The notes below the pieces were generated by a model. The model did not search any database. It worked only from the letters and a program-made list of their open reading frames with translations, and was not told where the DNA came from. A stretch of 64,000 bases of DNA, taken from Escherichia phage vB_EcoM_005. How positions within the stretch are numbered: position 1 is the first letter of the stretch; each line of letters starts with the position of its first letter. The DNA is taken from the sequence record MK295203. One strand, 5' to 3'. Positions 4,157 through 61,316 of the stretch are shown one piece after another. Made by a program: the position numbers and the translations under genes.

Positions 4157-5131
4157 ATGCAAGATTTCGGACATTGGGCGGTATTTGAAGAAACCGATAT
4201 TAAAAACCATATTGGATTTGTATACGTAATCACTTTTGAAGATGGCAAAAAATATGTAGGTGCTAAAAAGATTTGGAAACGAATTAAAGCTGCACCTTGC
4301 ACATTTAAACGCGGCCCTAAAAAAGGATTTGAAGAATCTGATTGGAAAACCTATACCTCATCATCTAATGAACTAAACGCAATGATAGAAAAGGGTATAA
4401 GTCCTAAAGAGTACCTTATTGTAGGATGGTATCCTACTTGGGGTAAAACTCTTATGGCAGAAATGGAAATGCAATTAGCCAATGATGTTTTACGAGACCC
4501 TATGTGGCTTAACAAGCAAATTGGCGGACATTTCAACCCTAACTGCTTTGACGATTTAACCGCTGACGAAGTTGGCAAGTATATTAAATCTGGGTGGCAA
4601 TTTGGTCGTTCTAAAACAGAAAAACATTCTGTTACCTATAATTGCTCTAAATTTACTATATGGGACTATCAAGAAAATAAAGCAGTGGAAGTTCTAAATC
4701 AAAATGAGTTTGCTCGTAATAATGATTTAAGTAGCAACCATCTAACTAGACTACTTCAAGGAACTCTCGACCTTATTAAAGATCGCTGGGGACTTCCACC
4801 AGATATTGCTCGTCAGCGTTATAAATTTCAGGACGTTTCTTCAGGAACAAAATTTTTATCTAATTCTGAGTTAGAAGAATTTTACGGTATGACTCGCGGT
4901 CAGGCTAACAAAGCCGTTAAAGATGGAAGAGCCGTTAAATTGGTAGTCGAAAGCAAAGAAGACCACATTAAAAAACTTGGCTCTATCGAATTGGTAAAAA
5001 CCGAAAAGACAAAAGTTACGTCTCAAGTAATGCTTAACAGTTTTAAAGATATAGTTAATCCTATGACCACTGCCGAAAAATCAGAAATGATTGAATGGTT
5101 GGAAAGTTATATAACTTATTTGAAATCTTAA
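4157..5131 (+). CDS. GIY-YIG homing endonuclease (seg-like)
   Basis: N-terminal GFVYVITFEDGKKYVGAKK (GIY...YVG) motif; 324 aa typical of free-standing T-even seg genes. Confidence 0.6.
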   Translation: MQDFGHWAVFEETDIKNHIGFVYVITFEDGKKYVGAKKIWKRIKAAPCTFKRGPKKGFEESDWKTYTSSSNELNAMIEKGISPKEYLIVGWYPTWGKTLMAEMEMQLANDVLRDPMWLNKQIGGHFNPNCFDDLTADEVGKYIKSGWQFGRSKTEKHSVTYNCSKFTIWDYQENKAVEVLNQNEFARNNDLSSNHLTRLLQGTLDLIKDRWGLPPDIARQRYKFQDVSSGTKFLSNSELEEFYGMTRGQANKAVKDGRAVKLVVESKEDHIKKLGSIELVKTEKTKVTSQVMLNSFKDIVNPMTTAEKSEMIEWLESYITYLKS

Positions 5132-9634: not shown

Positions 9635-10390
9635 ATGAAATACATCACATACCTGACAATATATTCCGGGACTAAGCTTCCACCGTTTTATATAGGGTCT
9701 ACCACTTTGGAGAAGCATTTAAAAGGATACCACGGGAGTGTCCTTTCTAAAGCATATAAAGAAATCTATAAAAATGAGCTTTTAGAGCACCCAGAATTAT
9801 TTGACTCATGTATTGTAAGTGAACACCCTACAAGAGAAGAGGCTTTAGAAGCTGAAAGAATGTACCAGTTAAGAACCGATGCGGCCCAAAATCCTCTATT
9901 CTTTAATAGGGCTGTCGCAGCTCCTAAAGGATTCTTTGGGCTTTCGCTACCTAAAGAGCAACACCCTCTTTACGGCTCTCATAATGCTAAAGGGTATATT
10001 CATTCCTATAATCCTGTTACATTGGAACAAACCTTTGCACCTACAGTCCCCGAAGGATATGTAGAAGGTCGTTCACCTAATTATAAAGCATCTAGTCATA
10101 ATAAGGGCAGGAAGTGGTATAACAATGGTGTTGACAAAGGATTATTTGTAGAAGGAAAACAACCCGAATCTTGGGTTCTTGGTGGTTTTCTAACCGATGA
10201 GCATAAGAAAAACTTGAAAAGAACTGATGGGATATATGACGGCAATTATCACAATTTAGTTTATAAAATTTTTAAGCCTACCGTTACAATTGTTAGACCT
10301 AAGAAAATCTGGGTTAATGACGGCATAAAAAGCTTTATGATTTCTGAGATAGAATTTAATAGTGAAATACATTATAAAGGTAGATTATGA
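9635..10390 (+). CDS. GIY-YIG homing endonuclease
   Basis: N-terminal YITYLTIYSGTKLPPFYIGST motif; NUMOD-like H/S-rich linker repeats; sits where T4 has alpha-gt. Confidence 0.6.
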   Translation: MKYITYLTIYSGTKLPPFYIGSTTLEKHLKGYHGSVLSKAYKEIYKNELLEHPELFDSCIVSEHPTREEALEAERMYQLRTDAAQNPLFFNRAVAAPKGFFGLSLPKEQHPLYGSHNAKGYIHSYNPVTLEQTFAPTVPEGYVEGRSPNYKASSHNKGRKWYNNGVDKGLFVEGKQPESWVLGGFLTDEHKKNLKRTDGIYDGNYHNLVYKIFKPTVTIVRPKKIWVNDGIKSFMISEIEFNSEIHYKGRL

Positions 10391-13832: not shown

Positions 13833-14531
13833 ATGAAATTCTCTAAAGAAACTCTGAACATTCTGAAAAACTTCTCCGGTATTAACCCAGGTATCATGCT
13901 TAAACCTGGTAACACTATTCTAACTCGTTCAGTAACGGGTGCAAGTTATGGTGAAGCTACTGTAAATGACACCTTTGATATCGAAGCCGCAATTTATGAT
14001 TTGAACGGCTTCTTAAGTATTCTGTCATTGGTATCTGATAGTGCTGAAGTTTCGGTAAGTGAAGACCAAACCACTTTAATTATTAAAGACCAACGTTCAA
14101 CTATTAAGTGGCCTATTGCCGACCCAAGCACAATTGCATTCCCAAGCAAAGCTATTCCGTTCCCAGTGGCTGAAGTTATTTTTGACCTTAAAGCTGAAGA
14201 TTATCAACAGTTGATGCGGGTGTCCTCTGGACTGAGTATTGATACATTTGCTATTACTGTAGACAATGGTAAAATTGTAATCAATGGTTACAAACAAGTT
14301 GATGATAAGGACCTGGCACGCCCATTGTATTCCTTAGTGGTTGCAGACCATGATGGCCCTGAATTCAAATTCATTATTAACAAAACTAATATGAAAATGA
14401 TGCCGGCCGATTACCATGTTCTGTTATGGGCACGCGGTGAAGGTCAGGACGCTCGTTTCGCTGCTAAGTTTGAAGGTTCACAAGCTTCTTACGTATTAGC
14501 TATGGAAGCAGGCTCAAGCCACTCGTTCTAA
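13833..14531 (+). CDS. 45: sliding clamp gp45
   Basis: 232 aa; near-colinear with my recollection of T4 gp45 (SGINPGIML, AAIYDLNGFL, NKTNMKMMPADY, LLWARGEG). Confidence 0.92.
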   Translation: MKFSKETLNILKNFSGINPGIMLKPGNTILTRSVTGASYGEATVNDTFDIEAAIYDLNGFLSILSLVSDSAEVSVSEDQTTLIIKDQRSTIKWPIADPSTIAFPSKAIPFPVAEVIFDLKAEDYQQLMRVSSGLSIDTFAITVDNGKIVINGYKQVDDKDLARPLYSLVVADHDGPEFKFIINKTNMKMMPADYHVLLWARGEGQDARFAAKFEGSQASYVLAMEAGSSHSF

Positions 14532-14995
14532 TGTATATATGTTATCATAATACGATAACCAACACTAAAACCAAGTGTGTCTATCATTATTTTGGTAGAC
14601 ACCGTGTTACTGCTGAAGAATACTACGGTACAGGTAAGTTTGTTAAGAAATGCAAACGAGAAAATGCTATTACTCCAGGTCTTTGGGAGTTTTGTGTTGA
14701 AGTTATCCATACAGTGGATACGTTTAAAGAAGCCAAGATTATTGAAGAAGAGCTTGTTAAAGAAGGCATATCAAAATATGGTATCCTTTGTGTTAATAAG
14801 AATCCTGGTGGTGATGGCGGTGTGGATTACCACACCGAAGAATCTAAACGTAAAATGTCAGAAACTAGAACAGGAAAATCAAGAATATTTTCCGAAAGTC
14901 ATAAAGAAAATTTAAGTAAACGAGCCAGAAAATACTCTGATGTTTGGTCCGAACCTGTATATTCAAATCTTAAAACCATTTGGCTGGAAACAGGT
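14531..14995 (+). CDS. degenerate GIY-YIG/NUMOD endonuclease-like module, in frame with gene 44
   Basis: 155 codons with no stop before the gp44 Met; VYHYFG...YYGTGK (GIY-YIG-like) and HTEESKRKMSE / SESHKENLSK (NUMOD3-like); start overlaps gene 45 stop (TAATG). Confidence 0.45.
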
Positions 14996-15967
14996 ATGTT
15001 ATTAAATGGTTTAACTATTAATGAAAACGACTTCATGTGGGAACAGAAATATCGTCCAGGTACTTTATCTGAGTGTATTCTGCCTGCGCATGATAAAGAA
15101 ACCCTCCAAGCCATTGTTAATAAGGGCCTAATCCCTAACATTATCCTAGTCTCTGCTTCACCAGGCACAGGTAAAACTACCGTAGCTAAAGCATTGTGTG
15201 CTGATACAAATTCAGATATGCTGTTTGTTAACGGTTCTGACTGCCGTATTGATTTCGTTCGTAACGAACTTACTCGTTTTGCATCTTCTAAATCTATCGA
15301 AGGTAAGCGTAAGGTAATTGTTATCGACGAATTCGACCGCGCTGGTGTTGCTGAAGCTCAACGTCACCTTCGTTCGTTCTTAGAAGCCTATTCCTCAAAC
15401 TGTTCTGTAATTATTACAGCAAACAATATTGATGGTATTATCGGTCCACTTCAATCCCGTTGTCGTGTTATTAAATTTGGTGAAGCCACTCCAGCCGACC
15501 AAACATCCATGATGAAAGAAATGATTCATCGTGCTGTAGCAATCTGTAAAAACGAAAATATCGAAGTCGAAGACCTTAAAGTTATTGCCGCTTTAGTTAA
15601 ACAAAACTTTCCTGACTTCCGTAAAACAGTTAACCAACTGGACCGTTACTCATCCAGTGGTAAAATCGATACAGGCATTTTGAGTATTGTAATGAATACC
15701 AATTCGCCTATCGATGAAGTAGTGGCTGCACTTAAAGATAAAAACTTTAAAGAACTCCGTGCATTAGCTCCACGCCATGTCAATGACTATTCCAACTTTA
15801 TTATGTCACTGGCTAACGAACTCTATGGTAAATTGCCTGGACCAAGCATTGTTAGAATGTATGAAATTGTCGGTGAAAATAACCAATACCACGGTATTGC
15901 GGCTAACCCAGAAATTCACATGACTTATCTGTTCATCCAACTTGCTCTGGAGCTCCAATGGCTATAA
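14996..15967 (+). CDS. 44: clamp-loader large subunit gp44
   Basis: AAA+ Walker A SPGTGKTT, Walker B VIVIDEFD, sensor IITANN; high identity to my recollection of T4 gp44 from MLLNG..EQKYRPG onward. Confidence 0.9.
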   Translation: MLLNGLTINENDFMWEQKYRPGTLSECILPAHDKETLQAIVNKGLIPNIILVSASPGTGKTTVAKALCADTNSDMLFVNGSDCRIDFVRNELTRFASSKSIEGKRKVIVIDEFDRAGVAEAQRHLRSFLEAYSSNCSVIITANNIDGIIGPLQSRCRVIKFGEATPADQTSMMKEMIHRAVAICKNENIEVEDLKVIAALVKQNFPDFRKTVNQLDRYSSSGKIDTGILSIVMNTNSPIDEVVAALKDKNFKELRALAPRHVNDYSNFIMSLANELYGKLPGPSIVRMYEIVGENNQYHGIAANPEIHMTYLFIQLALELQWL

Positions 15968-26032: not shown

Positions 26033-26354
26033 TTTATCTGATTTAGATAATTTCGTTAAAGATACCGAAGAGGGTCCTAGTGACCCTCGGTATTATGAGA
26101 AATCATTAGATATAATCCGTAAGTCAATGGGTTCTGTTAAGCAGGAAATTATGCTTACTTTACCCGATGGCACTGCTCACATCGTTTATGTGATGAATAT
26201 TGTTATTGAGAAAGATGGAAAAGTGTCGGTTGATTTCGGAACACCTTCCGAAGACCGAAAAGAAGAGCTAGCGCTTCATGTAGAAAAATGTGTTACAATG
26301 CAAATACAAGAAGAACTGGATAAAATTAAATCTAAGAGGTGGTGGAAATGGTAG
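26025..26354 (+). CDS. hypothetical protein at the T4 gene 40 position
   Basis: 109-aa ORF between uvsX and 41; synteny only. Confidence 0.4.
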   Translation: MTDLSDLDNFVKDTEEGPSDPRYYEKSLDIIRKSMGSVKQEIMLTLPDGTAHIVYVMNIVIEKDGKVSVDFGTPSEDRKEELALHVEKCVTMQIQEELDKIKSKRWWKW

Positions 26355-27780
26355 AAACTATTTTGGCTCAACTGCTAGGCAATAGTGATTATTTCACTAA
26401 GGTCTGGCCTTATATGAATGATTCTTATTTTGACCAGGGTCCTGCAAAGACCCTTTTCAAAGAAATTAAAAAACACGTCAATGAATATAATGCAGTGCCT
26501 TCTAAGAACGCATTGAGCATTGCATTAGATAACAGTACGCTTTCAGAAGTTGAACATCAGGGCGCTAAAGAGCTTTTAAGTTCACTGAATGCCGGACCTG
26601 AAGACCAAGAATGGTTGGTTAAAGAGACGGAGAAATACGTTCAGAAAGCAGCGATGTATAATGCAACTTCAAAAATCATTGAAATCCAAACTAATGCCGA
26701 CCTTCCGGTTGAGCAACAAAATAGAAAACTTCCAGGTATTGGTGCTATTCCTGGATATCATGCGTGATGCATTATCGATTTGTTTCGATTCTGAATTAGG
26801 TCATGACTGGATGGATGACTATGAAGAACGATTCAAAAGTTATTCCGATAAAGCACGTAAGGTTCCGTTCCGTCTTAATATTCTGAATAAGATTACCAAG
26901 GGTGGTGCCGAGTTTGGTTACTGAAAACGTATTGTTGGCAGGAACAAACGTAGGTAAGTCTCTTGGCCTGTGTTCATTGGCTGCTGATTACCTTCAATCA
27001 GGTTACGATGTTCTTTATATCTCCATGGAGATGGCAGAGGAAGTATGTGCTAAGCGTATAGATGCCAACCTTCTGGATGTATCGCTGGATGATATCGATG
27101 ATGGTCATGTCTCTTGGCCTGAATATAAAGCTAAGATGGATAAATGGCGTTCAACTGCTACCTTAGGTCGTTTAAAGATTAAACAGTATCCTACTGGTGG
27201 TGCTAATGCCGATACCTTCCGTGCATTATTAAACGAATACAAGCTCAAACAAAACTTTGTGCCGCAGGTCGTTATCGTCGACTACTTGGCCATTTGTGCA
27301 TCGTCTCGTACTAAAGTTTTCTCTGAAAACAGTTACGGATTGATTAAGATGGTAGCCGAAGAACTACGTGGACTGGCAGTAGAGAAGAAATTATTGTTGT
27401 GGACAGCAGCCCAGACTACTCGTGGTGCGAACGTTGCGGCCGAAATCGATATGGCTGATATTGCTGAATCATTTGGTATTGCACATACTGCAGACTTCAT
27501 GTTAGGTGTGGTCGAGACAGAAGAGTTTGCTCAGATGGGTATGCAAATGGTTAAGCAGCTTAAATCTCGTTACGGCGATAAGAGCTACTACAACAAATTT
27601 AAGATTGGCGTTAAGAAAGGAAACCAACGTTGGTATGAAGTTGAAGACGATTCCAACCCAGGCCCGGTGAACACTGTTCGTGAGGCTACAGGTGAGATGA
27701 ATCGTCAAGCCGAGGTCAATCGTCAGACGCGTGTTAATAGAAGTGATTTAGACGATTTAGCAGCATCTATCAAATTTTAA
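26348..27780 (+). CDS. 41: replicative DNA helicase gp41 (DnaB-like), interrupted by two apparent +1 indels
   Basis: three consecutive ORFs in three frames (to 26767, 26589-26924, 26902-27780) together colinear with my recollection of T4 gp41; Walker A GTNVGKS; frame changes near 26754 and 26918. Confidence 0.85.
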
Positions 27781-30145: not shown

Positions 30146-30676
30146 ATGGGTTCAGGAGGGCCTTTAAGTAGGGCAAAGGAAAAATACGGGCTGGAAAATT
30201 TCGAAAGAGAAATTCTAGAGTTTTTCCCTAATGAAGACCTAATGAACGAAGCTGAGGCAGCTATAGTAACTAAAGAATTTATTAAAAGACCCGATGTTTA
30301 TAATGCTGTGCCGGGCGGCAGAAGTTTTAGAGTAGGCCCGACGGAAAATTATGATTCTAAACGGCATTCAGAAGTCCAGATAAAAAGCTGGGATAATCCT
30401 GAAAAAAGGGCCAAGCAAGCCAAAACTATAAAAGCTATCGCATGGAAAGAATGGGATAATTTAGAGGAAGTAAAAATCCGACATAAAGAATCCTGCAGTA
30501 AAGCACAAAGAAAACATAAAGCCTGGAAAGATTATAATGTATTAAAAGAGATTTGGGTTAAATTAGGAAAACCTGGATACGGTAGGTTTAATAATGAATT
30601 AATTAAGCTTGGTTACGAAAAAAGAAATTACCAAAGAATGGTAGATGCTTTTAATAAAGAGGAAGAACTAGTATGA
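30146..30676 (+). pseudogene. GIY-YIG homing endonuclease remnant (N-terminally truncated)
   Basis: begins inside the catalytic domain (KYMGSGG...KEKYGLENFEREILE); NUMOD-like linker; C-terminal module shared with the two HNH ORFs downstream. Confidence 0.5.
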
Positions 30677-30927
30677 GTTTTGTAGACAGAGAATTTGCTT
30701 TAAGAGCTTTTCAAACACTGCCAAAATTTAGACAAGTTACCGGAAGCGATTTTAAGCTTAACGCAAGGTGCCCTATTTGTGGTGACTCACAGAAAGACGA
30801 ACATAAAGCTCGTTTTTGGGCTTATCCTGTGAATGATGGTGGCATTATGTTGCACTGCTTCAATTGCGATGCTAGTTTAGGAATTAAGAAGTATCTATAC
30901 GAATACGAGCCTGATTTATATCGTTAA
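30673..30927 (+). CDS. 61: DNA primase gp61, N-terminal zinc-binding domain as a separate ORF
   Basis: FKLNARCPICGDSQKDEHKARFW...HCFNC matches my recollection of the T4 gp61 zinc ribbon; ORF stops after EPDLYR. Confidence 0.8.
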   Translation: MSFVDREFALRAFQTLPKFRQVTGSDFKLNARCPICGDSQKDEHKARFWAYPVNDGGIMLHCFNCDASLGIKKYLYEYEPDLYR

Positions 30928-30940
30928 GATGCCTGTCATC

Positions 30941-31144
30941 GAAAAGCTTAATTTCTGTGAACGATTAGATAGAATGCCAAACGACCATCCTATTATCAAA
31001 TATGTGACACTACGTTGCATTCCTGAAAACAAATGGAATCGTGAAAAGCTTAATTTCTGTGAACGATTAGATAGAATGCCAAAGGACCATCCTATTATCA
31101 AATATGTAACACTACGTTGCATTCCTGAAAACAAATGGAATCGC
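30941..31144. repeat. tandem duplication, 2 x 102 bp (in frame) within primase
   Basis: two copies differing at 3 positions. Confidence 0.8.
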
Positions 31145-31496
31145 TTATGGTTTACTAAAGAATGGCCGGCATTGGTGAACTCTGTCAATCCAGGGACCTA
31201 TTCTAAATTGAAATGCCTGAGCCTCGTTTGGTTATTCCAATTTTCAATAAGAATAAACAAATTGAAAGTTTTCAGGGTCGAGCCTTACGTAAAGATGCTC
31301 CACAAAAATATATTACAATACGTTGTGGTTTACTAAAGAATGGCCGGCATTAGTTAACTCTGTGAATCCAGGGACCTATTCTAAAGAAATGCCTGAACCT
31401 CGTTTGGTTATTCCAATTTTCAATAAGAATAAACAAATTGAAAGTTTTCAGGGTCGAGCCTTACGTAAAGATGCTCCACAAAAATATATTACAATA
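31145..31496. repeat. tandem duplication, 2 x about 178 bp within primase
   Basis: copies nearly identical; copy 1 carries a small indel and the period is not a multiple of 3. Confidence 0.8.
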
Positions 31497-31592
31497 AGTT
31501 GGTGTGGGTAATGGAAGGCCCTATTGACTCTTTGTTTGTTCCGAATGCAATAGCAATTACTGGCGGGTCGTTGGACTTGGCTATGGTTCCAT

Positions 31593-31690
31593 GTAAAGAA
31601 ACTCGTGCCTGGGTAATGGACAATGAACCCCGCCATCCGTTGTAAAGAAACACGTGCCTGGGTAATGGACAATGAACCCCGCCATCCTGA
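31593..31690. repeat. tandem duplication, 2 x 49 bp within primase
   Basis: GTAAAGAAAC(T/A)CGTGCCTGGGTAATGGACAATGAACCCCGCCATCC repeated. Confidence 0.8.
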
Positions 31691-31719
31691 CACAATTAAG
31701 CGTATGCAACGATTAGTTG

Positions 31720-32370
31720 ATGCTGGCGAAAGGGTTCTATTCTGGGACAAGAGGAAAATTAAGAGGTTCTAAGCGGTCTTTATCATATTATACGGAAGAA
31801 CACCATGTTATACCTAGATGTATGAATGGTTCTGATGATAAAAACAATTTAGTTGCTTTATTGCCAAGAGAACACTTTGTAGCTCATAGGCTTTTAACAA
31901 AAATATATCCCGAAGTAAAAGGTCTACATTATGCTGTTAATTTAATGAGATATAATAAAGGAGTTAAATTAACTAGTAGAACTATAGCCACGTTAAGAGA
32001 AAATAACGCTAAAGCATTTTCAGGAAAAAATAACCCGATGTTTGGTAAACCTTCCTGGATTAGAGGGATGAAAACTCCTGAAGAAACTAAAGCCAAAATG
32101 CGCCTGGCTCATAAAGATAAAATTATATCTGATGAAGCCAAGGCCAATATGAGTAAAGCTAGAAAAGGAAGATTTAGTGGTAAAGATTCCCCTAGATATG
32201 GTTTGCCAAATCCTAGGCGTGGAGAAATATGGAATAGTTACGATATGCTTTATGAATTATGGGTTTACAATAATAAACCTAAACGCACCAAATTTAATAA
32301 AATAGCTGTTGATAATGGATATCCTGATATTTGTTATCGACGAATGATAGAAAACTTTAATAGGAAATAA
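31720..32370 (+). CDS. HNH homing endonuclease
   Basis: EEHHVIPRCMNGSDDKNNLVALLPREHFVAH (HNH motif); NUMOD-like repeats; first ATG lies inside the last codons of the primase fragment in another frame. Confidence 0.65.
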   Translation: MLAKGFYSGTRGKLRGSKRSLSYYTEEHHVIPRCMNGSDDKNNLVALLPREHFVAHRLLTKIYPEVKGLHYAVNLMRYNKGVKLTSRTIATLRENNAKAFSGKNNPMFGKPSWIRGMKTPEETKAKMRLAHKDKIISDEAKANMSKARKGRFSGKDSPRYGLPNPRRGEIWNSYDMLYELWVYNNKPKRTKFNKIAVDNGYPDICYRRMIENFNRK

Positions 32371-32374
32371 TATA

Positions 32375-32512
32375 ATGGCATTTTTTAACGAATGTAGTGG
32401 TTTGATTTCTGGTGTTGATAAAGCTGAGGAAGCTTATTTTAATGCTCTGATTCACGAAGATAATTTATTTATTCGCTTTAATCTAACAGTTTATAATTAT
32501 CTAACTTATTAA
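32375..32512 (+). pseudogene. dCTPase gp56 N-terminal fragment (diverged partial duplicate)
   Basis: MAFFNECSGLISGVDKAEEAYFNALIHED then out-of-family tail; 52 bp identical to the start of the next copy. Confidence 0.5.
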
Positions 32513-32535
32513 TGAATTGAAAAAGGAAAAATATA

Positions 32536-32955
32536 ATGGCACACTTTAACGAATGCGCAAACCTGATTGCTGGTGTTGATAAAGCTGAGGAAGCTTATTT
32601 TAATGCTCTGATTCACGAAGATAAGGACCCTCTGCAGGTTATGTTGCGTGAACAGAAAGATTGTATTGACGATGAATTCCGTGAACTTCTGACTTCCCTC
32701 GGTGAAATGTCTAAAGGTGAGAAAGATGCATCTGCTGTATGGAAAAAATGGAAAGCCCGTTACCCGGAAGCACAAGCCAAACCTATTTCAGAAATGTCTC
32801 CTGAAGACCAGCTTGAAATTAAATTTGAACTCATTGATATTATGCACTTCGTATTCAATATGGCTATTGGCTTGAATATGTCGGCTGAAGAAATGTTTAA
32901 ACTTTATTACCTGAAAAATAAACACAACTTTGAACGCCAGGACAATGGATATTAA
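32536..32955 (+). CDS. 56: dCTP pyrophosphatase gp56 (MazG-like), copy 1
   Basis: 139 aa; MAHFNECA..., KDCIDDEFRELLTSLGEMS, EDQLEIKFELIDIMHF, KLYYLKNKHNF match my recollection of T4 gp56; lacks about 32 internal residues relative to T4. Confidence 0.8.
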   Translation: MAHFNECANLIAGVDKAEEAYFNALIHEDKDPLQVMLREQKDCIDDEFRELLTSLGEMSKGEKDASAVWKKWKARYPEAQAKPISEMSPEDQLEIKFELIDIMHFVFNMAIGLNMSAEEMFKLYYLKNKHNFERQDNGY

Positions 32956-33379
32956 TTTCAAATCCGTTCTTAAAGAAAAGTTCCCGCAATGGGAACTTTT
33001 AGAAGATAAACCTGAATATAACCGTCATCCTGATGACTTGGCTACTGCAGGTGAAGTTGTTGATTGGTTGCGCAATCAGAAAGATTATATTGATGATGAA
33101 TTCCGCGAACTTCTGACTTCTCTTGGTGGCATGAGCAATGGCGAAAAAGATGCGAGCGCTGTATGGAAGCCTTGGAAAGCTCAACATGCTGAACGTCGTG
33201 AAACCCTGATTAACGATTTGTCTCCTGAAGACCAGCTCGAAATTAAATTCGAAATGATTGATATTCTGCACTTTGTTCTGAATATGTTCCAAGGTCTTGG
33301 ACTGACTGCTGAAGAAATCTTTAAACTGTATTACCTGAAAAATAAACACAACTTTGAACGCCAGGACAATGGATATTAA
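32945..33379 (+). CDS. 56: dCTP pyrophosphatase gp56 (MazG-like), copy 2 with a different N-terminus
   Basis: 144 aa; carries the HPDDLATAGEVVDWLRNQKDYIDDEF segment missing from copy 1 but lacks the MAHFNEC N-terminus; last 90 nt identical to copy 1. Confidence 0.7.
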   Translation: MDINFKSVLKEKFPQWELLEDKPEYNRHPDDLATAGEVVDWLRNQKDYIDDEFRELLTSLGGMSNGEKDASAVWKPWKAQHAERRETLINDLSPEDQLEIKFEMIDILHFVLNMFQGLGLTAEEIFKLYYLKNKHNFERQDNGY

Positions 33380-33412
33380 TTTCAAATCCGTTCTTAAAGA
33401 AAAGTTCCCGCA

Positions 33413-34210
33413 ATGGGAACTTTTAGAGGTCATGATTACTTAAAAATTATAGATAAGTATAAACTAAACGTCCATACCAAATCTAAAACTGAAGCTCATC
33501 ATATACTTCCGAAGTGTGCATTTCCAGAATACAGCGATTTTAAAATCTCTCCTTGGAATAGGGTGTATCTTCCTATATACCAACACATATATGTTCATTA
33601 TCTTTTGTGCTCAACTAAGGTGTCGGGTTTGCTTAATGCATTCCAGAGAATGACACTAACAAATAGTGCCCAGTTTAAGAAGCTTTCTGATTTAGAGAAA
33701 GACCTTACTATTAAGTTATGGGCCGATAAACGTGGGGAGTGGATAGAGCAAGACATTCTCCGTAAAAGAAAATCCTTTATGTATTCTAATTTTGATTTCT
33801 GGTATAATGACTGGATTTCGCGGGATATGCCTCGCTATCGAAGATATTGGGGAGTTTTGGTTGAAGAAAATAATCCGGAAGTTTTAGGTACCCACAAAAA
33901 TAGTTTATTGACAGTGGTAAAAGATTTTTGTTTGAGATACGCAGAAGAACATAATTTATCTGAAGAAGAAGTTTTGAGTCTTCAAAAATTAAAACAGTCT
34001 TCAGAAAAAGCTTTAAAAGATAAAGGAAAAACTTTAAGTAAAACTGCTAGAGGCAATCAACTCAAATGGAATTATGAAACTGAGCTTAGGAATTTATGGA
34101 TTGCTAATAACAAACCAAAATATGTGAATTTCAGAAAGCTAGTGGTTAGCTTAGGCTACCCGGATGAAAATTATATAAACATGATAAAGAGGTTTGAAAA
34201 TGGGTTCTGA
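33413..34210 (+). CDS. HNH homing endonuclease
   Basis: TEAHHILPKCAFPEYSD...NRVYLP...HIYVH (HNH motif); start codon lies within a 92-bp repeat derived from gene 56. Confidence 0.65.
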   Translation: MGTFRGHDYLKIIDKYKLNVHTKSKTEAHHILPKCAFPEYSDFKISPWNRVYLPIYQHIYVHYLLCSTKVSGLLNAFQRMTLTNSAQFKKLSDLEKDLTIKLWADKRGEWIEQDILRKRKSFMYSNFDFWYNDWISRDMPRYRRYWGVLVEENNPEVLGTHKNSLLTVVKDFCLRYAEEHNLSEEEVLSLQKLKQSSEKALKDKGKTLSKTARGNQLKWNYETELRNLWIANNKPKYVNFRKLVVSLGYPDENYINMIKRFENGF

Positions 34211-54813: not shown

Positions 54814-54907
54814 TGAATCTTAAACAACTCCAGATTGATGCAATCGAAGCCCATATTAATCATGTTAAACGTCTTACCCTCTGGCAACGTGTTAAAGGAT
54901 GGTTCAA

Positions 54908-55396
54908 ATGAATCCATTAAAAGGTAAAGAATTATCCTTTAAACACCGTTTGGCTTTATTAGATAAAGCTCTTTCTCGTGAGACGCCTGAAAGTCTAGCA
55001 GCTAAATTACAGGCCTATGGTGATTACACCGAATATACGGAAGAGGATGTTCTAAAAGAAGTCCCTGAAATCTGTTGGCAAGTGGCCCATTGGTGTGAAG
55101 ACCAAAAATTCCAGCGTCGAATTGTATGTGCTGCAAACCGTTTTAAGTTAAAAGATGGTGGAACTCTGGTTATTCCTGCGACACGTCATTACTCTAAAGA
55201 TATGGGTGCGGTTATCAAGGCAGTTGAAGATAAATTGGTAACACGATTTGTCTGTGATGATGACCAAGGCTTTGTCGACCAATATGGTAATTATTGGACT
55301 CGTGAAGAAGCAATGATAATTGCAACATATGCTAATCAGGTTCGTATTGAACGTGGTGGTAGTGAAAAAGAACTTTACTCTGAGGACCTTTACTAA
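54908..55396 (+). CDS. hypothetical protein, tandem paralogue B
   Basis: 163 aa; same domain as 54325-54813, mosaic of identical and diverged blocks. Confidence 0.5.
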
Positions 55397-55417
55397 TGAA
55401 TCTTAAACAACTCCAGA

Positions 55418-55678
55418 TTGATGCAATCGAAGCCCATATTAATCATGTTAAACGCACTGAATGCCACGGTGGAAGATAATTGGGGAACTTATGTAAACCA
55501 ACCGGCTTGGGATGCTTTAGACCACGAATATATAAAGAATATTAGTTCTAAGACAATCCACGGGAATATGGAAGGGTTGAAGCCATTCCTACGTGATATG
55601 TATATTGCAACTAATAAAGAAATTATCAGCTCTCTTGAATATCAATTAAGGAAATTACGTGAACAATCTGGTAGCTAA
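55418..55678 (+). CDS. hypothetical protein (second copy at 56899-57111)
   Basis: 86-aa ORF; C-terminal 70 residues repeated nearly identically 1.4 kb downstream. Confidence 0.4.
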   Translation: MMQSKPILIMLNALNATVEDNWGTYVNQPAWDALDHEYIKNISSKTIHGNMEGLKPFLRDMYIATNKEIISSLEYQLRKLREQSGS

Positions 55679-55800
55679 GCACGACTCATAAGGACAAGAA
55701 GAAAAACTTTAAAGAGTCTAAACGTAAACAGAAACATAAGGGTAAAGGCTATGAGTCATAACTTAGAGAATACCGTAACAGGCATGCGTACACGGGACAT

Positions 55801-55829
55801 GTTTACAATCCCTAAGGATATGTTAGTAT
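55801..55829 (+). promoter_or_regulatory. T4-type early promoter (copy 1)
   Basis: GTTTAC 55801-55806, 17-nt spacer, TAGTAT 55824-55829. Confidence 0.5.
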
Positions 55830-55870
55830 AGCCCTATCAGATAATGACGTACTGAATTGAAGAGAATATT

Positions 55871-56005
55871 ATGACTAAAATTGAAATCGTTTCCGAAATT
55901 GCCACTATTGTTTCCATTTTGATTAAAACGGATTGTGAAGACATCATGCAACGTCGTGATGAGTTTATGAACATGTTTACAATCCCTAAGGATATGTTAG
56001 TATAG
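55871..56005 (+). pseudogene. asiA 5' duplicate, truncated at the repeat junction
   Basis: MTKIEIVSEIATIVSILIKTDCEDIMQRRDEF then reads into the repeated promoter sequence and stops. Confidence 0.5.
55975..56003 (+). promoter_or_regulatory. T4-type early promoter (copy 2)
   Basis: identical to the 55801-55829 promoter. Confidence 0.5.
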
Positions 56006-56044
56006 CCCTATCAGATAATGACGTACTGAATTGAAGAGAATATT

Positions 56045-56320
56045 ATGACTAAAATTGAAATTGTTTCCGAAATTGCTACTATTGTTTCCATTTTGATTAA
56101 AACGGATTGTGAAGACATCATGCAACGTCGTGATGAGTTTATTGCCTTTTTGAATGAGTTGGGTATTCGTAATGAACATGGAAAGGAACTTAATGGTTTG
56201 TCTTATAACAAATTATTTAAGTCTTTAACTGAAGATGAACGTGACACTCTTATTGAGCAATTTAATGAAGGATATGAAGATATACACCGTTATTTAATGA
56301 TGTATACCTCCAATTTCTAA
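56045..56320 (+). CDS. asiA: anti-sigma-70 factor AsiA
   Basis: 91 aa; TIVSILIK...FIAFLNE.G..HEG..LN..S..K....LTE...TLIEQFNEGYE..HRYL.MYT matches my recollection of T4 AsiA. Confidence 0.85.
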   Translation: MTKIEIVSEIATIVSILIKTDCEDIMQRRDEFIAFLNELGIRNEHGKELNGLSYNKLFKSLTEDERDTLIEQFNEGYEDIHRYLMMYTSNF

Positions 56321-56643
56321 CGTGTTCGACCTAATGTCCTTCCGGCTTGACCGCACATAGACGAAAGTCTAGGAAATCCTAAATCCGGTTTGGCGCCTTT
56401 TTGAATGAGTTAGGTATTCGTAATGAACATGGAAAGGAACTTAATGGTTTGTCTTATAACAAATTATTTAAGTCTTTATCTGAAGATGAGCGTGAAACTC
56501 TTATTGAGCAATTTAATGAAGGATATGAAGATATACACCGTTACTTAATGATGTATACCTCCAATTTCTAACGTGTTCGACCTAATGTCCTGCCCGGCTT
56601 GACCACACATAGACGAAAGTCTAGGAAATCCTAAATCCGGTTT
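56144..56643. repeat. tandem duplication, 2 x about 250 bp (asiA 3' half plus the convergent holin 3' end)
   Basis: copy 1 56144-56392, copy 2 56395-56643, about 97% identical. Confidence 0.8.
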
Positions 56644-56907
56644 GATATCATACCAGTACAACGATATCGAGCCGGCGTAGACGTTATCCAAATTAAAAAA
56701 CGGGCATGAAAACATATACGTGAATTGTGTTTTCTTCTTTGTAGGAAGGAATACAGTTTCAGTACTTGATTCAAAGATATCATACCAGTACAACGATATC
56801 GAGCCGGAGTAGACGTTATCCAAATTAAAAAACGGGCATGAAAACATATACGTGAATTGTGTTTTCTTCTTTGTAGGAAGGAATACAGTTTCGATGTCAT
56901 GGTGGAA
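56644..56907. repeat. tandem duplication, 2 x 132 bp (in frame, 44 codons of holin)
   Basis: copies differ at one position. Confidence 0.8.
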
Positions 56908-57111
56908 GACAACTGGGGAACTTATGTCAACCAACCGGCTTGGGATGCCTTAGACCACGAATATATAAAGAATATTAGTTCTAAGACAATCCATGGTAAT
57001 ATGGAAGGGTTGAAGCCGTTCCTACGTGATATGTATATTGCAACTAATAAAGAAATTATCAGCTCTCTTGAATATCAATTAAGGAAATTACGTGAACAAT
57101 CTGGTAGCTAA
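56899..57111 (+). CDS. duplicate copy of the 55418-55678 ORF, embedded within the holin region
   Basis: 70-aa ORF about 93% identical at DNA level to 55469-55678. Confidence 0.35.
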   Translation: MVEDNWGTYVNQPAWDALDHEYIKNISSKTIHGNMEGLKPFLRDMYIATNKEIISSLEYQLRKLREQSGS

Positions 57112-57133
57112 GCACGAGGGTACTTGATTCAAA

Positions 57134-57339
57134 ATAGTTCCCGTTAACTCCCGCCATATATTCTACTGACGTTTTGTCAATTGGAAACCCTCCCGTATTT
57201 TTTGCGTCTACCGTTTCCGGTAATTTACCCTCGTAGATAGTTCCCGTTAACTCCCGCCATATATTCTATTGACGTTTTGTCAATTGGAAACCCTCCCGTG
57301 TTTTTTGCGTCTACCGTTTCCGGTAATTTACCCTCGTAG
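57134..57339. repeat. tandem duplication, 2 x 103 bp within holin
   Basis: copies differ at 2-3 positions; period not a multiple of 3. Confidence 0.8.
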
Positions 57340-57343
57340 GCCA

Positions 57344-57461
57344 CCATATCCACAAAATAATTCATGTTGGTTGGTCTAAAAGAATATATTGCTGTGAAGG
57401 AGCAACCATATCCACAAAATAATTCATGTTGGTTGGTCTAAAAGAATATATTGCTGTGAAG
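57344..57461. repeat. tandem duplication, 2 x about 62 bp within holin
   Basis: 56 bp identical in both copies; creates the stop ending the N-terminal holin ORF. Confidence 0.8.
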
Positions 57462-57787: not shown

Positions 57788-58561
57788 TTATAACCAAGAG
57801 CCGTAGATAGTGCCTGTAGCGCCCCATGAAGGAGAACTTCCGAATACCGCTCTACCAGGAGCACCACCACCCGACCTGGATAAGTTATTACCCCATCCAT
57901 TGCCACCAGCGCCTCCAGCATCACCGCCATTGCCACCGCCAAATTGGCTTGTATTACCACCGCCACCTGGACCATCATAACTAGCATTGCCGCCTGGCCA
58001 ATTAACACCACCGCCGCCGAGACCAAATGGTCGACCGCCTCCACCACCTGCTGTAGAATTTGCAGGCCAACTATTCTGTAATGATACGGCACCACCGCCA
58101 CCACCACCGGAGGCTATCACACCATAATTCCAAATGCGAAGTCGTCCACCAATATCATTTTGGATTACGTCACCACCATTAGTGCCTGGGCTTCCATTTA
58201 CTGTACCGTTGCCACCTCGGCCCCACATATGAACACCACCATGAATATTCAAAGTAACATATTCGTTAGGGGTATCACCGTACATAAAGAACAATGGAAC
58301 ATCTTTAGTATATGATACTAAGTTGCCTGTGATATTAAACACTATAGGAGCACCACCGGCTTCAAAACAACGGTCACGAAACCATTGACCGTTAAAGTTA
58401 TGGTCTGCGCCAAGGGTATGAATAACCTCAACAGAACGGCCTATCATATTACTCATCCAAAACGGAGCGCCCATTCTCAATCGCTGGGCGGCGCCGCCCA
58501 TCCAATTTTGTCCTGTATTAACTACTGCAGACCATCCTACCCACGGTCCTTCAACTGCCAT
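57788..58561 (-). CDS. 38: tail-fibre adhesin gp38 (T2-type, glycine-rich)
   Basis: 257 aa with multiple polyglycine stretches (GGGGGG, GGGGG) typical of T2-like gp38 receptor-recognition adhesins; directly downstream of 37. Confidence 0.8.
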
Positions 58562-58573
58562 ATAAACCTCCAA

Positions 58574-58587
58574 GGGGCCGAAGCCCC
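58574..58587 (-). other. GC-rich hairpin between 37 and 38
   Basis: GGGGC-TTCG-GCCCC on the minus strand, no U-tract, immediately before the gp38 RBS. Confidence 0.3.
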
Positions 58588-58592
58588 TCTTA

Positions 58593-61316
58593 TTATTTTA
58601 ACAATGATTTAATTAATGCTTTAAGTTCTTCAATCTCTGATTTCAATTCTGCTATTTCTGCAGTGTGCTCATTGATTGCAGCCGTATTTAAACCAATTAC
58701 ACCGTTATAGTTTAAACGAAGTAAAGCTTCACCATTGGGGTCGCCTTCAACCAATTCAGGTAAAATAGCTTGAACTTCTTGAGCAATTAAACCAGCGTTA
58801 GGTTCCCATTTCTGATTACCTTCTTCGTCAGTTCCAGCGTTTCTGCATATAAGTGTAACCGTTAATTTTAGAAAGCTTCTGGGAAGCATTTTCAAATTTA
58901 ACAAGGTCTTTTTTAACACGAATATCAGAACGGACATAAACATCTCGAACATACGTAGAATAGGCATCGCTTTGTTGGACTAAATGGCCAAAAGAAATAA
59001 TAGCCCTTCCTGTTTCAGTCCACAAAGCACCATGGGTATCCCAAAGACCTTCTATTGAACATCGCAACACCTTGTGGAGATAAAATTAACCTCGCCATTA
59101 GGGTTAATATTAATACCGCCTTGGGATTGGAAGCTCCAGAAGGCTAAACCGTTATCAGCACCACCATTACCTACATACCAGTTATCAACGCCACCTTTTT
59201 TACCCTTAACATAACCTGCTTCATCTGCTGGATAATCAATAACAACAGCATCCGAGTTGGTTTTAAGAGTTAAGCGGCCGGTCATCGTGTCGCCTTCTTT
59301 AGAAACACGAGTAGCAATGGCATCGCGAATATTAGTTACGTCGCCTGCTGAAGTAAATGTTTTCCAGATATCAGAGAAAATATTACCATTTCGGGCAATA
59401 GTAGCTTCACCACCACCGATCTGTACGTTATCCGGGAAGTTAACTGTACCATCAGCATTAAATCTTGAGGTATGACCTCCGGTCCCGTCTTCTTTAAGAT
59501 GGTGTAAAACAAAAGTACCAGATTCTATTTCAGTACCTAAAGACCAAACAGCTTTTCCTTGTAAGAATTTTTGCTTAACGATAGGATAATATTTACTTAC
59601 AGCGTCATCATCAATTTCTTGGAAAACAGGAGCGGCTTGTGCATATTGAATATCATAACCACCTGCACCTGCACCATGTCCACTGAATTTAATATAACCG
59701 TTTGCCGCAAAAGAAGCATAACTCAAATCTAGGTCAGGGCTTTCTTCTGAACGGCGGAAAATAGCACCGTAGTCATCGTTCCAAATTCTAAGGGCATTGA
59801 CAGCATTACCAGCAATAGTGCCAGAGGCGTTAACTTCTTTACCGACGTTGATGCTTTCGTTTACATTCATGCCACCATTTAAATGGGCTTCGACGTTATT
59901 ATCAGTCTTACGCTGAATATAATGCATCCAACCAACGTCATCAGATATTTCCATTACGTTTTTGCGGTCACCGGCGACATTAGTAAAGGTGTTACCCCAA
60001 ACGTTGATAGTCATGTTATCAACTGAACTATTTCCTGTAGTATTTCCTCTGAACATCAGAGTAGATGCATTGTTGCGGCCGTCAATATTAACCGAACCAC
60101 CAACAACATCAATATTACCAGGAGTAACTAACAAACCACCGTGAGTATTAACGTTTGTCGTGCCCTTACCACGGAAATAGTGATGATAATTTCCACCTTG
60201 ATAATAACCTAAAAGAGTTTGACCGTCGCCATACGCGTTATTATCATGATAAGTGACAACCGTCGCCAAAGCATAGTTTTCCGACGGAGGAGTGGTTAAA
60301 TCGGTACCGTTTACAGAATAACCCATAACCATTTTTCTAAGACTGGTGGTTTCTGCCGGGCCGTTCAGGAAAGTTCTTGTTCCGTTGTTTACATTAAAGA
60401 AATATCCGTCTTGGTACCATTGTAAGCCGGTATCATTATCGCCAAGAGCAATTGAAGCTGTTCCTAATTCAGAATATCCTTTAGAACCGTTCGGAAGACC
60501 GACCGACATGGAATGACCAGCTTTCAATCCACCAGACCATGTAAATGACCAAAGGTAGGCGTCTAATCCATCGCCTGCATACCAGGTTATCCCATCATTG
60601 TCTTTAACTTCATGGAATATACCTGCTCCTACAGCATTTCGCATAACACGAAGGTGGTTAATAGCCGTTTCACTTTCTGCCAATGGGCTATTATCGGCCA
60701 TTGAATAGATATCATAATCGCCAGCCTTCTTCCCGTTTGTAATAACTTTATCGGTCAGAATTTGTGGAGACGAAATAGATTTCCATGCTGATACTTCGGG
60801 CGAAGTAAATAGGCCGCTGCCTGAAAATGCATAAGTGCTTTCGCTACCAGCGGCGTAGTCTTGAACCCTGATATTAACTACCTGAGTTGTCAAACCTGCA
60901 TTATTAGGAGAAAAGATAATACCACGTTCACGTGATGCACCGTCAAAGAATCTCAAATGAGAAGTTGAAGCACTCTTAGAAATAAGTTCTCCGCCTTCAG
61001 TCATTATCTGACCTGCAGCAATAATATCACGAGTTACACGAGCAATACCGGTTAAATTAAAATCACCTGTTTGGGTAAAGGTACCATTTAGGGTATAATC
61101 ACCGGTTTGATTGTAGTTACCGTTATGAATAACGTTTCCGTCGATATTACCACCTTTAGCAAAGCCAAGGTCGATGATGGCACCGGTATCGTCTTTAGTA
61201 AAAAGTAATCGGTCCTTTAAGTTAATAGCCAGTTCGCCTTCAGCCAACTGGGCCGGTGTTGGACGTACACCGGCCACTTTACTTCTTTTAAATTGGATTT
61301 GCTTTAAAGTAGCCAT
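58593..61316 (-). CDS. 37: long tail fibre distal subunit gp37 with C-terminal S74-type intramolecular chaperone domain, two apparent frameshifts near the C-terminus
   Basis: N-terminus [17 protein letters not shown]...[13 protein letters not shown] matches my recollection of T4 gp37; main ORF 59052-61316; chaperone domain (RSDIRVKKD autocleavage-type motif, [17 protein letters not shown]) continues in two other frames (58828-59070, 58593-58967). Confidence 0.8.

Follow-up and report, generated by a model that had tools for sequence, protein, structure and literature searches.

The self-cleaving intramolecular chaperone (IMC) domain at the end of gp37 and its pairing with gp38 are already known, in T2 since the 1980s and in phage S16 from a solved structure. 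In T2 and T6, gp37 undergoes C-terminal proteolysis, after which a gp38 adhesin of approximately 260 aa caps the fibre (PMC3157838; Drexler et al. 1986 cited there). In S16, autocleavage of the IMC bares the gp38 docking site on gp37 (PMC7917993; PDB ID 6F45; Dunne et al. 2018 cited there), and the cleavage site before the Ser of the gp37 IMC motif has been described (PMC7917993). The C-terminal IMC domains of endosialidases and of T5 pb1 (Schulz et al. 2010, cited in PMC7917993) belong to the same Pfam family (PF13884) and carry a Ser-Lys motif at the domain start; their cargo is a tailspike rather than a fibre tip, whereas in gp37 a separate adhesin caps the fibre after cleavage.

Intact relatives of the gene studied here encode gp37 as one ORF of approximately 1100 aa ending in a Peptidase_S74 IMC of approximately 111 residues. 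The IMC nucleates trimerisation and folding of the gp37 fibre and, after trimerisation, cuts itself off at the Ser of the motif S-D-x-R-x-K by means of a Ser-Lys dyad. The cleavage bares the surface where the N-terminal domain of gp38 docks, and the glycine-rich domain of gp38 presents the receptor-binding loops. By analogy, an intact version of the gene would take the same route, releasing a 111-residue IMC and leaving a fibre that ends in ...DVYVR, with no difference in principle from T2 and T6.

The window (the whole stretch of DNA analysed, 64,000 nt) has the backbone of a Dhakavirus-like T-even phage, with approximately 94% nucleotide identity to WG01, PSD2002 and others, and its gene order 35-36-37-38-t is that of the Dhakavirus and Mosigvirus relatives. 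All genes of the gp37/gp38 region lie on the minus strand, as seen from the ORF list and the three-frame translation. At the 3'-end of gp37 the list contains ORFs at 59052..61316 (754 aa), 58828..59070 (80 aa) and 58593..58967 (124 aa), followed by the gp38 ORF at 57788..58573. The first of them (59052..61316, minus strand) is the truncated main ORF of gp37, the distal subunit of the long tail fibre. It corresponds to residues 1 to approximately 776 of WG01 gp37 minus 33 (in tblastn, WG01 residues 1–776 match window positions 61316–59088 with 86% identity), has weak Pfam matches to Gp34_trimer and gp37_trimer, and ends in a TAG stop at 59054–59052. The segment 58593–59070 is the 3'-end of an ordinary T2/S16-type gp37 gene of a Dhakavirus-like T-even phage. 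As written, translation of this gene ends at 59052 after 754 residues, with neither tip nor IMC, and a functional fibre could not form.

An earlier reading made from the sequence only had placed an S74-type intramolecular chaperone at the end of gp37 and had proposed a search with the Peptidase_S74 profile. The search gave a match above the gathering cut-off of 22 bits: the stitched C-terminus of 152 aa scores 52.3 bits against PF13884 (E=7e-14; profile positions 1–57 of 58). The same sequence aligns with the C-terminus of S16 gp37 (PDB 6F45_A) with E=3e-37 up to the last residue of the latter, the homologous part being approximately 150 aa long, and T5-like L-shaped fibre proteins match it at 40–42% identity. 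Judged by these scores, the S74 assignment is far beyond chance. Scanned singly, the ORFs score 21.7 bits (profile 1–28), just below the cut-off, and 25.3 bits (profile 32–57).

The segment 58838..59052 (minus strand) encodes the last 41 residues of mature gp37 (EGLWD...DVYVR) and the first half of the S74 IMC (profile 1–28). The second half (profile 32–57), the C-terminal coiled coil and the TAA stop are located at 58593..58836 (minus strand) in the main gp37 frame; the 6F45 alignment covers both segments. The catalytic-type motif S-D-I-R-V-K (codons 58929–58912) lies at the domain start and aligns with SDRRIK of S16 gp37, the conserved pattern being SD(I/R)R(V/I)KK. From the alignment of DVYVR^SDIRVKK in the window with VS^SDRRIKK in S16 (caret at the cleavage site), the predicted cleavage and catalytic residues are the Ser encoded at 58929–58927 and the Lys encoded at 58914–58912 (minus strand). 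The IMC is 111 aa long in the window and 113 aa in S16. Upstream of the cleavage site, the sequence of the mature fibre belongs to the Dhakavirus/Mosigvirus type and not to that of S16. In all relatives examined, the IMC is translated within one ORF as the C-terminal end of its fibre; in the window, the stop at 59052 precedes it and the domain is split at 58837.

The adjacent gene had been taken for a T2-type glycine-rich gp38, and this identification holds. The gp38 adhesin (57788..58561, minus strand; 257 aa) is intact and begins 32 nt past the gp37 stop. As in S16, it has an N-terminal gp37-docking domain and a polyglycine-rich receptor-binding domain. Both Pfam profiles are matched at full length (PF21721, Gp38_N, 1–40 of 40, E=1.3e-20; PF05268, GP38, 1–218 of 218, E=1.1e-81), and the protein is 95–96% identical to gp38 of UPEC01 and JS10 over residues 1–257. 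The resulting fibre tip had been called unusual. It is not: a gp37 with a cleaved IMC followed by a glycine-rich gp38 is the standard design of T2, T6 and S16, and a tblastn search with the stitched 152 aa matches at least 268 phage records at a coverage of 80% or more. Hundreds of sequenced T-even phages have this tip. The spacer that separates gp37 from gp38 contains a GC-rich hairpin, GGGGC TTCG GCCCC (58562–58592, minus strand), which adjoins the gp38 ribosome-binding site GGAGG and is kept in all six aligned relatives; possibly it is a terminator or a translational-coupling element.

The lesions in gp37 were located by alignment of the window with WG01, RB69, CEV1, MN04, AV111 and TH44. 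Four of them break the gene: a 99-nt deletion, an inserted A, a 482-nt deletion and an inserted C. The first removes exactly 99 nt (33 codons) without changing the frame and has its junction at 59738..59740 (59739, minus strand). The net 99 nt are absent relative to both WG01 and RB69; in the latter case window positions 59914→59711 align to 1888→2190 of the RB69 segment. This deletion shortens the Gp34_trimer-like Pfam match to profile positions 8–89 of 116, compared with 8–115 of 116 in WG01. The second lesion is a single A inserted at 59086..59087 (minus strand; GAGGTTAATTTTATC in the window and GAGGTTATTTTATC in TH44), which merely makes AA of a single A and sits 34 nt upstream of the third lesion. 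The latter, with the junction at 59052..59053 (between 59053 and 59052, minus strand), is the absence of 482 nt found in WG01, AV111, TH44, CEV1, MN04 and RB69. It takes out approximately 160 aa of the distal shaft and tip (residues ~783–948 of the relatives in WG01 numbering), and the TAG stop at 59054–59052 is formed across its junction. With these and the 33 upstream residues absent, the distal shaft and tip before the cleavage site are incomplete. The fourth lesion is a single C at 58837 (minus strand; CAGAAACG[C]TGGAACTGAC), which comes after ACG and is followed by TGG; it splits the S74 domain and yields a TGA at 58830–58828. Around this position CEV1 and AV111 are identical to the window except for the inserted C, which WG01, RB69, MN04 and TH44 do not have either. 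The S16 gene differs in having no such breaks, namely the large deletion with the loss of approximately 160 residues before the tip and the two 1-nt insertions.

The sequence-only reading described the first junction as a frameshift, whereas it is in fact the 482-nt deletion at 59053/59052 accompanied by the insertion at 59087/59086. The second junction was attributed to a homopolymer miscall in an A-run. The inserted C lies outside that run, and the AAA near 58837 has the same length in WG01, CEV1, AV111 and TH44; therefore the insertion at 58837 is not a homopolymer event. One might still suppose that base-calling errors are the whole story, that is, that a gp37-IMC ORF free of other damage was broken up by two homopolymer miscalls. 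Single-base insertions do account for two of the lesions, and gp41 has two of the same kind: this primase-helicase gene (26348–27777, plus strand), essential in T4, is split over three frames with 99–100% amino acid identity to WG01 (tblastn) by isolated insertions of one T at 26752 and at 26919. Yet none of the four inserted bases belongs to a homopolymer of 3 nt or longer, and those at 58837 and 26752 belong to no homopolymer of any length. Moreover, removal of both inserted bases leaves the gp37 ORF broken, since the 482-nt deletion is itself out of frame (482 mod 3 = 2), and the 99-nt deletion remains as well. All relatives have the 482 nt, which refutes base-calling as a complete explanation, and we regard it as highly unlikely.

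The chaperone domain had also been said to be spread over three reading frames, and the peptides quoted for it are recovered by three-frame translation. It is split among ORF pieces, but only two long frames are involved: the gp37 homology runs A-B-A through three ORF pieces, and the third frame holds it for 11 codons only (59054..59086, minus strand; compare ILSPQGTSIFSIN in WG01, ALNPEGSATFNFN in RB69 and CAAGGTGTTGCAATAGTCAATATA in AV111 and TH44). The main ORF and the last ORF share one frame (59052−58593 = 459 = 153×3), because the three frame-affecting lesions total −480 nt (160 codons). This return to the main frame is a 1-in-3 coincidence. It is also what could be cited for programmed recoding, in which ribosomal frameshifting would make a fused gp37-IMC protein or tune the amount of IMC-bearing fibre. 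Such recoding would, however, require three shifts, and one of these would have to cross the scar of a deletion. The contexts of the insertions, GUU AAU UUU at 59087 and CGC UGG AAC UGA at 58837, are neither slippery heptamers of the X XXY YYZ type nor known +1 motifs; like insertions occur in gp41; and the breaks are seen in none of approximately 200 DNA relatives and 268 protein-level relatives. Programmed frameshifting was therefore rejected, its probability being close to nil.

The relatives have an unbroken gene. In WG01 (KU878968) and RB69 (AY303349), gp37 is a single ORF of 1100 and 1103 aa, respectively, with the same C-terminus and with gp38 next to it, and the uninterrupted gp37 ORFs of the relatives range from 1100 to 1104 aa. 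Dhakavirus and Mosigvirus phages (WG01, JS10, MN04, RB69, vB_EcoM_RZ) are 87–95% identical to the window at the nucleotide level on both sides of the 482-nt junction, but their gp37 has the 99 and 482 nt that are absent here and does not have the two extra bases. All six aligned relatives have the 482 nt and neither inserted base. In a nucleotide search of a collection of 50,697 phage records, no record matched contiguously across the 482-nt junction; all 13 records covering both flanks need two pieces spanning 666–682 nt for the 201-nt query. The junction strings are absent from IMG/VR and from metagenome contigs, and an unbroken control string is likewise absent from IMG/VR, so this result has little weight. 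Look-ups of the exact gp38, gp35 and gp36 proteins likewise gave no source contig to compare with. A natural short-fibre variant was considered and rejected: the deletion shifts the frame, and among 118 phage records with matches not one reads through the junction.

The matches listed for the stitched C-terminus each align as one uninterrupted tblastn piece and hence in one frame; the top one, vB_EcoM_RZ, reaches 98% identity over 152 codons. On either side of the inserted C, the stitched frame differs from WG01, RB69, CEV1 and AV111 mainly at third codon positions and synonymously. For RB69, 30 of the 43 differences fall on position 3, with 28 codons changed synonymously and 9 non-synonymously. 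As the differences across the breaks are mostly synonymous, this DNA evolved as one coding frame. The stitched-frame codon comparison revealed no mutational decay of the gp37 fragments after the lesions. On this comparison of sequences, the breaks are either very recent or non-biological.

The rest of the window was surveyed by tblastn with all proteins annotated in the syntenic 68 kb of WG01, and 99-nt deletions were counted as net gaps between colinear BLAST blocks of the window and WG01. There are 15 deletions of net exactly 99 nt relative to WG01, with junctions near 1441, 2783, 3353, 5820, 12297, 12775, 16916, 19486, 24505, 35710, 44941, 46090, 46749, 51628 and 59739. They fall in the genes of gp43 DNA polymerase, gp46 (two), rIIA (two), gp37, nrdC, nrdH and others, and gp43, gp46 and rIIA are shortened in the window. 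The ends of these deletions are clean, with no microhomology at the breakpoints. Other lesions are a 127-nt deletion with a frameshift in dda (38788), a 255-nt in-frame deletion in dexA with the loss of 85 aa (40157), and a 152-nt deletion at the end of gp52, which is truncated (52848). The gaps are not peculiar to the comparison with WG01: gaps of 255, 99, 99 and 99 nt recur relative to PSD2002, an independent relative, and the 99-nt gap in gp37 recurs relative to RB69. At the same time, many proteins of the window are 99–100% identical to their relatives' at 93–97% nucleotide identity, and the point substitutions are natural.

Most of gp41, gp43, gp46, gp61, gp56, gp52, gp37 and holin t are essential in T4, and dda and dexA are dispensable. 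Fifteen deletions of one and the same length, of which several hit genes that T4 cannot do without, cannot have arisen naturally. On this picture, the window has a natural Dhakavirus backbone on which structural damage of a non-biological kind is superimposed; the sequence-only reading had missed that such damage runs through the whole window. The lesions in gp37 are a part of this window-wide damage, which comprises 99-nt deletions, 1-nt insertions and scrambled or duplicated blocks, and hence are artefacts: very probably they arose in sequence assembly, processing or generation and are neither a property of a living phage nor a recoding signal. The suggestion that the frame breaks are errors rather than biology is most likely correct in this respect, as no relative shares the lesions and the damage extends over the window. 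We infer that the process was non-biological, and of what kind it was, from the homology, the lesions, their uniqueness and their pattern, all of which were observed directly.

A different account is a genuine pseudogene, the window being a faithful copy of a defective T-even genome (such as a non-viable member of a mixed population, or a metagenomic molecule that had degraded) that has truly lost the gp37 tip and the IMC. The given sequence does contain the lesions, and those in dda and dexA affect genes that T4 can do without. Against this, gp41, gp43, gp46, gp61, gp56, gp52, gp37 and holin t are all damaged together, and a phage with this gene set could not grow or propagate; fifteen clean-ended 99-nt deletions have no biological mechanism; and the gp37 fragments lack decay. 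We consider the pseudogene unlikely. It is very improbable that the lesions exist in real DNA as a defective T-even genome in which the distal domain and the IMC of gp37 are lost and gp38 is intact, for example, one complemented by a co-infecting relative.

As for the origin of the artefact, an assembly that merged two co-occurring phages, or a stitching error in a de Bruijn graph, can be named as a speculation; tandem diverged copies of gp56 and ORF257 may be mentioned along with the former. Both 99 and 127 are common k-mer settings of de Bruijn assemblers, and the coincidence of the deletion sizes with these settings is a hint, and only a hint, at graph stitching. The 482-nt deletion, not being 99 nt long, may result from another process than the 99-nt class. 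A codon-aware process is not supported, as the 99-nt breakpoints in gp43 and rIIA fall within codons (computed by hand from the coordinates). Alternatively, the window may have been machine-generated or deliberately perturbed, in which case it informs on the data source only.

The biological weight of the IMC in gp37 is small, both the domain and its pairing with gp38 being textbook matter. The practical value of the finding is that of a data-quality warning: the window cannot be taken for a faithful phage genome, and other frameshifts, truncated genes and odd architectures in it need checking against relatives before they are interpreted.

Several further observations concern the arrangement of the window. 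At 30680–33400 the genes of gp61 primase and gp56 dCTPase are fragmented, and there are internal repeats, including a 49-nt insertion repeat at 31636. Two copies of gp56 of unequal divergence (62% and 92% amino acid identity to WG01) occupy a region of approximately 1000 nt, compared with one copy of approximately 590 nt in the relatives. Just downstream of gp38 there is a scrambled and duplicated block (54876–57400), where holin t is broken into three, with duplicated stretches of asiA and of WG01 ORF256/257 lying between its pieces; ORF257 is present in two tandem copies with 96% and 88% identity.

ORFs without a WG01 counterpart at the same position were found on the plus strand at 4157–5131, 9635–10390, 14531–15010, 30146–30676 and 33413–34210. 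One of them encodes a SegE-type GIY-YIG homing endonuclease (PF19835, E=8e-34) in the place where WG01 has gene 49, and gp49 has no tblastn match anywhere in the window. The remaining extra ORFs have no Pfam match or a weak match to NUMOD3 only. The extra ORF that starts at 14531 continues in frame into gp44.
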